Sequence record: OQ243220.1
Length of the DNA stretch: 46,647 bases
Strand: one strand, 5' to 3'
From: Escherichia phage phiSTEC1575-Stx2k
The first letter of the stretch is position 1; every line of letters begins with the position of its first letter. Positions 20,068 to 20,650 of the stretch are shown here, piece after piece. The notes under the pieces are model-generated. The model saw only the letters and a list, made by a program, of their open reading frames with translations. It searched no databases and was not told where the DNA came from. The translations under genes and the position numbers were made by a program.

Positions 20068-20412
20068 ATGAAGAAAAAATACGAACTGGTTGTTAAAGGG
20101 ATAAATAATTACCCGGATAAGATTGCTGTTACTGTGGCACTGGAAATTGGTGGGTATCCGTCGCTGTTGTTGTCAAATGTGGCGATTAGTCTTGACCGTA
20201 CTGAAGGTGCCACGCTGGAGTTTTATGAGGCAGCAGCCAGAAGGAGCGTCAGACAGGTCTTCCTTGATGTTGCTGCCGGGTTATGTGAAGGGGATGAGCA
20301 GTCGCCGGAAAAGCGCCCCGTAATTTTAGAGGTGCAGAATGTGTGGATAACCTGCAAAGGAAAACTGCCGGGAAGAATTACTGGCTCTCTGAAGACTCCT
20401 CCGAAATGGTGA
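20068..20412 (+). CDS. Hypothetical protein in the position normally held by the SAR endolysin
   Basis: 114-aa ORF right after the pinholin stop; no lysozyme motifs. Confidence 0.45.
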   Translation: MKKKYELVVKGINNYPDKIAVTVALEIGGYPSLLLSNVAISLDRTEGATLEFYEAAARRSVRQVFLDVAAGLCEGDEQSPEKRPVILEVQNVWITCKGKLPGRITGSLKTPPKW

Positions 20413-20650
20413 TTTTACCCGCATATTTCTCTTCCAGTAATGCTGCCAGCCACTTGAAAGAATTTTGTTGTTCCCTGGACCATCTGGGGTTGCGTGATTC
20501 AAACTCGATTGATGCCAGCGTTGATTGCATATGTTCCCTAGGTATTGAGAATGCGAGATATGAAAATGCAACAGTGAGGGCATTTACATCATCCCGAAGC
20601 CTGGAAATGTAGTCGAGCAGCTCCTGTAGAGAAATGGCGTTATTGTCCAT
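20378..20650 (-). CDS. Hypothetical protein, convergent with and overlapping the previous gene by 35 bp
   Basis: 90-aa ORF with AAGAGG RBS. Confidence 0.45.
   Translation of the reverse strand: MDNNAISLQELLDYISRLRDDVNALTVAFSYLAFSIPREHMQSTLASIEFESRNPRWSREQQNSFKWLAALLEEKYAGKITISEESSESQ

Follow-up and report, generated by a model that had tools for sequence, protein, structure and literature searches.

Two small open reading frames (ORFs) in the lysis region of Escherichia phage phiSTEC1575-Stx2k (sequence record OQ243220.1; the whole stretch of 46,647 nucleotides (nt) is called the window here) run towards each other and overlap at their 3' ends, and the locus raises the question of whether they form a functional pair or are separate genes that happen to meet. 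An earlier note gave ORF A at 20068-20412 (plus strand, 114 residues) and ORF B at 20378-20650 (minus strand, 90 residues), and suggested a toxin/immunity or mutually regulating cargo unit of which neither member belonged to a known family. The coordinates, the tail-to-tail overlap of 35 nt (20378-20412) and the plausible ribosome-binding sites (RBSs) were all verified, with GGGGAGAG lying 7 nt 5' of the ORF A start codon and AAGAGGA 6 nt 5' of that of ORF B. The statement about families did not hold, as both proteins match catalogued families of unknown function (DUF1327 and phrog_2411, respectively) and both genes are annotated in RefSeq. On balance, we think it likely that ORF A and ORF B are two independent genes meeting at a recombination junction and that their pairing is positional. 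The arrangement is a common one, already annotated in E. coli prophages, in which ydfR (ORF A) is followed by an unrelated small accessory gene inserted backwards; the members present here are a gene of the DUF1327 family and an accessory cassette whose family is catalogued but uncharacterised.

Positions 20068-20650 are 100% identical (583 nt compared) to the chromosome of E. coli STEC1575, where they lie in the Stx2k prophage. The RefSeq gene order in that strain is an AraC-type helix-turn-helix gene, three tRNAs, stx2k A and B, an iraM-like gene on the minus strand, a class II holin, the 'YdfR family protein' (ORF A), the minus-strand 'hypothetical protein' (ORF B), a putative holin, a phage holin, an M15 metallopeptidase and the terminase genes Nu1 and A. 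Conservation of both ORFs in related phages was checked and found, and neither shows homology to lysis proteins in Pfam or PHROGs. An ordinary lysis function was rejected for both, as no family matched and neither contains a hydrophobic segment.

The assignment of ORF A is unambiguous. The protein matches Pfam DUF1327/YdfR (PF07041) with an E-value of 9e-41 and 138.5 bits (cut-off 25), residues 1-112 covering model positions 1-92 of 93, and it also matches phrog_406 (E 1.5e-62) as well as phrog_2091 and phrog_1085. The gene belongs to the standard set of the phage-21-type lysis cassette (S-ydfR-R-Rz), and the order holin then ydfR recurs in K-12 Qin, REL606 Rac, O157 prophages and phage 86. 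As its start lies 4 nt past the S stop codon (S ends at 20063, ydfR runs from 20068), ydfR is presumably transcribed and translated together with S from the Q-antiterminated late transcript. Its length is variable: forms of 296-329 residues abut R with a gap of 36-55 nt, and forms of 114, 116, 148, 162, 176, 182, 211 and 268 residues also occur. The window has the short 'KW' form, of which the final codons and the stop codon lie inside the ORF B cassette. The AlphaFold2 model of YdfR has a mean predicted local distance difference test (pLDDT) score of 63, and the maximum 19-residue Kyte-Doolittle hydropathy of the protein is 1.22.

A literature search for YdfR returned a single informative study, on its interaction with RNase E (PMC13232886). 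In that work, K-12 YdfR bound RNase E residues 1-597 in a two-hybrid assay, co-purified with RNase E residues 1-598 and pulled down RNA, and YdfR residues 1-72 bound the N-terminal catalytic half of RNase E; overproduction of YdfR altered few transcripts, and growth arrest was reported for YegJ only (PMC13232886). The YdfR of K-12 Qin resembles ORF A in its full-length DUF1327 match, its similar size and the position of its gene, which is directly preceded by a phage-21-type holin gene (essQ) and followed by the endolysin region. However, it is 49% identical to the window protein, is of another N-terminal sequence type and has a different C-terminus, and its gene runs directly into the lysozyme gene rrrQ, which it overlaps without an intervening reverse gene. 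Binding of RNase E and co-purification of RNA were shown for the K-12 YdfR protein only (PMC13232886).

ORF B belongs to phrog_2411, which it matches with an E-value of 1.2e-52 and with residues 1-90 aligned to profile positions 1-90 of 90. Our sample of the gene comprised 85 copies, namely 80 IMG/VR loci, REL606, phage vB_EcoS-783R2, Escherichia ruysiae (the one locus added by a scan of genome contigs), STEC1575 and the window. The reading frame is intact in 26 of the 27 distinct nucleotide alleles among these copies, and its ATG is conserved across alleles. The genetic order is invariant (85/85), with an S21-type holin gene followed by ydfR and then by ORF B in reverse; apart from loci cut by a contig end, the next gene is R, encoding a signal-arrest-release (SAR) lysozyme, in all but the window/STEC1575 and locus L004. 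The protein is acidic (isoelectric point (pI) 4.75) and predicted to be soluble, with a maximum 19-residue hydropathy of 0.88. AlphaFold2 gives a three-helix bundle with a pLDDT of 81.6 in which residues 81-90 are predicted to be disordered.

No match to ORF B was found in Pfam, NCBIfam or PADLOC, no solved structure related to it by sequence was found, and a literature search found no mention of its protein accessions or of phrog_2411. DUF6887 as a lead for ORF B was rejected, as the match (E 0.033, 14.9 bits) fell below the cut-off of 24.2 and was seen in just 1 of 14 family members. An exhaustive profile search did find relatives of 30-35% identity in Klebsiella, Atlantibacter, Sodalis, Brenneria and metagenomes, all of which match phrog_2411 (E 1e-9 to 1e-35) and have in common the motif ELLdxIsxLrxxvNvLxxAFsYLaFs...LrFES.N. 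phrog_2411 is thus a widespread enterobacterial family of small proteins without a Pfam entry.

The contexts of these relatives are diverse. One sits in reverse orientation between lambda-like tail genes (M and L), overlapping a 71-residue gene by 7 nt; one is reversed and adjoins terminase genes; one converges with an 85-residue gene, with an overlap of 17 nt; a lone relative is found in a Sodalis chromosome; and another chromosomal relative sits between dinI and bssS, a few kb from rne (L177, 4638-5279). The latter is set apart from dinI by dinI's own terminator.

A 58%-identical paralogue (WP_000976359 type) is very common, being found in 2430 blocks of the collection (for example L179, 7001-7270, and L181-L186, 5001-5270), and it occurs on chromosomes as well as on conjugative plasmids. 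Its position is constant: a TibC-like heptosyltransferase gene and a gene for an AIDA/TibA-type autotransporter precede it in every case, 308 nt upstream. This paralogue resembles ORF B in its phrog_2411 match (E 3e-35), its protein sequence and a shared RBS region, and nucleotide similarity extends over the core block listed in Table 1. In contrast to ORF B, it is co-directional with the autotransporter gene, lacks a convergent partner and possesses a C-terminus of its own, NIAMPEVRKEQ.

The nature of the overlap becomes clear when the sequence between ydfR and R is compared among loci. Homology between the window and other variants stops at 20395/6, or in the O157 'TPPLA' type at 20403-07, and picks up again at 20712, which is 44 nt 5' of the R start codon; the breaks at both ends therefore define 20397-20711 as a cassette in a variable slot. 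The gap between ydfR and R measures 36-63 nt where there is no reverse ORF and 343 nt with ORF B. The GC content of the cassette (0.448, for what is a short segment) is lower than that of the ydfR core (0.477), S (0.565) and the downstream phiP27-type lysis cassette (0.53-0.57). Four different reverse ORFs, belonging to phrog_2411, phrog_18136, phrog_2572 and phrog_1853, fill the slot at the same junctions, and no relatedness was detected among the four. Examples of such fillers lie in L087 (3588-3902, minus strand) and, between ydfR and R, in L103 and L093. The view that the pair had been inserted at the endolysin site needs amending: ORF B alone is an insert, and ydfR is a regular resident. 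Likewise, ORF B is cargo-like, being carried on a cassette of about 315 nt between ydfR and R, but the idea of a toxin/immunity or mutual-regulator unit was not borne out.

The 35-nt overlap is a by-product of this junction, each gene taking its stop codon from the segment of the other, because the ORF B frame runs on into the conserved 3' end of ydfR and the cassette in turn supplies the ydfR stop codon. The paralogue ends in ...YGGNIAMPEVRKEQ and ORF B in ...YAGKITISEESSESQ, and the tail made by the junction agrees with the predicted disorder of residues 81-90. The ratio of non-synonymous to synonymous polymorphism (pN/pS) in the overlap is about 0.4 in both frames, indicating no special constraint. 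An identical octapeptide, AGKITISE, occurs in ORF B (residues 77-84; 20392-20415) and in the C-terminal domain of a long YdfR (residues 229-236; L099, 1845-1868). The two stretches are encoded on opposite strands, there is no wider similarity and no nucleotide match was found on the inverted strand.

A close parallel is provided by Stx2-converting phage 86, in which gp05 (a 268-residue YdfR) and gp06 (a reverse ORF of 104 residues) fill this slot and likewise converge, upstream of R. The junctions are also the same (20396 and 20712 in window coordinates), but gp06 belongs to phrog_1853 and is unrelated to ORF B (hhalign E 0.37), the phage 86 ydfR keeps a 155-residue C-terminal extension, and gp05 and gp06 do not overlap.

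The two genes also differ in their distribution. DNA matching a query made of the pair, almost always the ydfR part only, is present in 4282 of 5426 complete E. coli genomes, and at least 80% of the query in only 26 of them. The ORF B cassette is found in 642 (12%), including REL606/BL21-type strains and UTI89. Because pair-query DNA is far commoner than the cassette, most ydfR copies must be without ORF B. Where the two do occur together, ORF B is joined to ydfR genes that are about 61-76% identical to that of the window (72% in REL606), some of them of a visibly different N-terminal sequence type (A2), as in K-12 and others; ORF B itself is 79-88% identical in most loci despite these divergent partners. 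Co-occurrence is thus not obligate, given the 4282 genomes with pair-query DNA against the 642 with the cassette and the relatives of ORF B found without ydfR. The genes of type II toxin-antitoxin systems are co-directional and co-transcribed, whereas these two converge from opposite strands. Neither ORF A nor ORF B matches a PADLOC model, and no toxin, antitoxin or defence family was matched in PADLOC, NCBIfam or Pfam. A toxin/immunity or defence pair was rejected on the absence of a family match, the negative co-occurrence counts and the tests of partner homology described below.

The surroundings of the pair have a history of their own. An endolysin had been expected at the position of the pair; the candidate instead lies 0.8 kb downstream, where Pfam, PHROG and RefSeq agree on an M15 peptidase (21483-21866). 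It is the last gene of a holin-holin-endolysin cassette, and the window shares 93% identity with the corresponding cassette of the Stx2e phage phiP27 between about 20789 and 21859. The gene order downstream of stx is the same in phiP27 (L28 holin, L29 holin, L30 endolysin), but phiP27 has no S21-ydfR-ORF B segment and carries a reverse ORF of 65 residues (L27) between stxB and the first holin gene. Other loci continue from the R start codon into the SAR N-terminus MNAKINGLSAAVLALI, and the window diverges directly after the ATG. From this comparison, R and Rz appear to have been replaced just after the R start codon by the phiP27-type cassette. In S, two leucines that are conserved in 153 of 156 homologues are substituted (L28P and L50R), and the homologue of S in L004, the nearest relative of this arrangement, is frameshifted and split into two frames. 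Judged by sequence, S is probably a decaying remnant, the two substitutions probably being disabling. Because the R leader and ATG are kept, the phiP27 match follows, S is substituted and the L004 copy of S is frameshifted, we regard S-ydfR-ORF B as the left-over of an older phage-21-type cassette beside one that is presumed to be functional. Downstream of the M15 endolysin gene, a 60-residue ORF (22465-22647, plus strand; phrog_7528) has the lipobox LLVGC and may encode a spanin-like lipoprotein, and the ORF encloses a terminator-like hairpin (22514-22539).

How ORF B might be used can be approached from its orientation. Given its orientation opposite to the Q-dependent late operon, ORF B is probably not expressed at the same time as ydfR. 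If it is expressed at all, ORF B would most likely be expressed from the prophage, since the late operon is silent in lysogens, and after induction late transcription would overrun it. Such a pattern would resemble that of morons such as lambda bor, which are accessory genes lying in reverse in or beside the late operon and expressed from the prophage; the lipoprotein Bor has a known serum-resistance phenotype. ORF B is like the lambdoid morons in being a small extra gene between genes that are adjacent in related phages, in running against the late operon, in being present in some relatives only, in belonging to a family that is also found in non-phage accessory DNA and perhaps in the lower GC content of its short segment. 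It is unlike them in that neither a promoter nor a terminator of its own was identified, and unlike Bor in that the product is predicted to be cytoplasmic and not a lipoprotein. The protein would most likely act by binding a host or phage protein.

The leader of ORF B has some structure. The fold of 20645-20760 on the minus strand, which contains the inverted repeat hairpin of Table 1, has a z score of -2.27 relative to shuffled sequences, and the core stem of the hairpin is present in all alleles. Three distant relatives have an upstream hairpin with the conserved loop GATGGCTGATTAA about 12-20 nt before the RBS (L168, ~4960-4985; L173, ~4955-4985; L175, ~780-805), which may be regulatory. 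Its 6-bp stem differs in each of the three (AAGAGG/CCTCTT, GCGGAG/CTCTGC and CCGAAG/CTTCGG), and the hairpin of the window differs from this type.

Several observations weigh against the reading of ORF B as an independent, prophage-expressed gene. No sigma-70 match of at least 9 of 12 positions was found upstream of ORF B; the best promoter candidate (CTGAAT, or TTGAAT in REL606, with a 19-nt spacer and TACAAT) ends 14 nt before the ATG, so that a transcript from it would exclude the Shine-Dalgarno sequence. No terminator-like site was found on the minus strand at 20068-20378, and the 3' region folds no better than shuffled sequence (z = 0.03). For expression in lysogens, the argument is one of orientation and analogy only. 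Fold searches with ORF B gave generic matches and no functional lead. The family shows convergent tail-to-tail overlaps in three independent contexts (35, 7 and 17 nt), which could hint at something other than accident. On the side of ydfR, the RNase E result comes from a K-12 protein that shares just 49% identity with the one considered here. Finally, two measures of coding character fail to single out ORF B: the frame that mirrors it on the plus strand has a pN/pS of 0.24, against 0.30 for ORF B, a difference that cannot separate them, and codon usage does not discriminate between the two.

We considered whether ORF B could instead regulate the timing of lysis, as an antiholin-like protein or an inhibitor of the SAR endolysin of the S21-ydfR-R cassette. 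Within Escherichia, ORF B occurs only inside the lysis cassette, just upstream of the conserved leader of R, and one distant relative adjoins a gene for a small lipoprotein that weakly matches spanins (E 0.24), both of which would fit such a role. However, ORF B has no transmembrane segment on the hydropathy measure given above, matches no lysis family and lies on the strand opposite to the lysis genes; its relatives are found in tail operons, plasmid adhesin islands and chromosomes, and the gene is intact in the window despite the loss of R and Rz and an apparently disabled S. We therefore regard a role in lysis timing as improbable.

A bolder proposal would make phrog_2411 a new class of small effectors that are antisense in late operons, expressed from the prophage in lysogens only and shut off by late transcription, acting either as exclusion or defence factors or as modulators of a host hub (for example RNase E) against leaky YdfR. 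We consider this a long shot. Were it to hold, the ydfR-R slot with its at least four interchangeable reverse cassettes would be a diversity hotspot in lambdoid and Stx phages.

The pair could also be a functional module in which acidic ORF B neutralises basic YdfR, the RNase E binder, with the convergent layout making their expression mutually exclusive. The opposite charges (pI 4.75 and 8.9) and the geometry found in every Escherichia copy would suit such a module, as would the relatives that overlap a convergent small gene in two other contexts, where the 71- and 85-residue partners bear a marginal likeness to the C-terminal region of YdfR (hhalign E 0.017 and 0.044). Tests of these partners for membership of DUF1327 with hmmsearch, BLASTP, Pfam and PHROG were nevertheless all negative, and for one of them the region of YdfR aligned by BLASTP is not that found by hhalign. 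As the ydfR stop codon is part of the cassette, the two genes are physically linked, which accounts for the invariant geometry. The genome counts given above, the relatives without any ydfR-like gene and the lack of a PADLOC match for either protein speak against a module, as does the absence of any sign of co-variation, ORF B being combined with ydfR genes only 61-76% identical to that of the window. Overproduced K-12 YdfR, moreover, had little effect on the transcriptome, growth arrest being seen for YegJ only (PMC13232886). The proposal is accordingly very doubtful.

It is also highly unlikely that the transcript rather than the protein is what matters, that is, that a minus-strand RNA starting near 20700 is antisense to ydfR and S and silences a leaky holin or interferes with late transcription. 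Antisense control is established in lambdoid phages (oop and paQ of lambda are examples), and a C4-type antisense RNA is present elsewhere in the window. With the convergent layout and no terminator after ORF B, any transcript would run into ydfR and S, and it would have a structured 5' leader. Against this, no promoter for such an RNA was identified, most S21-ydfR cassettes are without ORF B, and the ORF is under purifying selection and its protein conserved to 30% identity in unrelated DNA, which argues that the protein is what is selected. No Rfam family was found in 19250-23000.

Barely credible, last, is that the real late gene is the plus-strand mirror ORF beginning at the ATG at 20406, with ORF B non-coding. 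The mirror frame (20406-20612 in the window, to ~20690 in most alleles) is a typical trap for gene callers: it is open for 89-94 codons in most alleles, has the lower pN/pS and a similar codon usage, and its ATG overlaps the ydfR stop codon (ATGGTGA), placed as for translational coupling. The low pN/pS is expected, as the third codon positions of the mirror frame coincide with those of ORF B, and pN/pS leaves the choice between the frames undecided because the same mirror effect is seen opposite ydfR. The mirror frame is interrupted in at least five distinct alleles, including that of the window (TAG, 20610-20612) and a lineage of about 10 loci, and is not preceded by a Shine-Dalgarno sequence. 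Substitutions are radical when read in the mirror frame (mean BLOSUM62 -0.52) and conservative in ORF B (+0.21), and it is ORF B that has protein homologues in unrelated DNA and a confident fold. The mirror ORF was rejected on the stops, the radical changes, the missing RBS and the distant homologues of ORF B, and the same evidence together with the predicted fold decides that ORF B is a real gene.

As first framed, as a toxin/immunity unit, the pair matters little, the arrangement being common and annotated. Some by-products are of value. phrog_2411 turns up repeatedly in accessory DNA, in three cases as a reverse insert overlapping a late-operon gene, and is a cheap target for a functional screen. 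The ydfR-R interval is a slot for the exchange of cassettes and could be mined for lysogen-expressed factors in Stx phages. The phiP27-type cassette beside a decaying phage-21-type one bears on lysis and toxin release in Stx2k strains.

Table 1. Positions of the genes and sequence elements of the ydfR-ORF B locus in the window
Feature	Positions	Strand	Remarks
S, phage-21-type class II (pin)holin gene	19848-20063	+	71 residues; MYQM dual start; PF04971 (E 2e-30); RefSeq 'class II holin'
ydfR (ORF A)	20068-20412	+	114 residues; pI 8.9; DUF1327/YdfR family; RefSeq WP_271287492 'YdfR family protein'
Overlap	20378-20412		35 nt; 3' end of ORF B (stop and final 5-6 codons) falls within the ydfR core common to all variants
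ORF B	20378-20650	-	90 residues; phrog_2411; RefSeq WP_161620918 'hypothetical protein'
ORF B cassette	20397-20711		about 315 nt; differs from all other ydfR-R variants; GC 0.448
Core block	20412-20675	-	73% nucleotide identity to autotransporter-linked paralogue; ends exactly where ydfR begins (blastn, window against L183)
ORF B Shine-Dalgarno sequence AAGAGGA	20657-20663	-	6 nt 5' of ATG; variants AGAGAGGA and CATGAGGA; kept in all alleles seen
Imperfect inverted repeat hairpin	20664-20713	-	just 5' of ORF B RBS, at right edge of cassette; no U-tract after it
R leader and start codon remnant	20712-20758	+	ATG at 20756-20758; R and Rz genes gone
Terminator-like hairpin with T-run	20788-20812	+	left end of phiP27-type cassette (terminator scan)
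Lysis cassette, phiP27 type	20829-21866	+	Pfam, PHROG, RefSeq; presumed functional
Holin gene (Phage_holin_8)	20829-21221	+	
Holin gene (Phage_holin_3_7)	21196/21211-21486	+	
M15 peptidase endolysin gene	21483/21489-21866	+	

Other features of the window were noted in passing. Between stx2k B and the lysis genes lies a homologue of the anti-adapter IraM (19259-19582, minus strand; NCBIfam NF007393, E 6e-46), a protein that stabilises RpoS, and an iraM-like copy of 73-74% identity is present at the same place in several IMG/VR loci. With 64.9 bits, a match to the Rfam small RNA STnc100 (19053-19247, plus strand) passes the gathering score; it overlaps stxB at the 3' end of that gene and finishes at a terminator-like hairpin (19219-19238). 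Upstream of stx2k, the AraC-type helix-turn-helix gene (16748-17461, plus strand) directly precedes the three tRNAs (17488-17736; Ile, Arg and Arg in RefSeq). On the plus strand of the early region, isrK (9212-9288) adjoins the C4 antisense RNA (9313-9400), both above the Rfam gathering score, and together they make up a P1/P7-type antisense immunity element in the Stx2k prophage.

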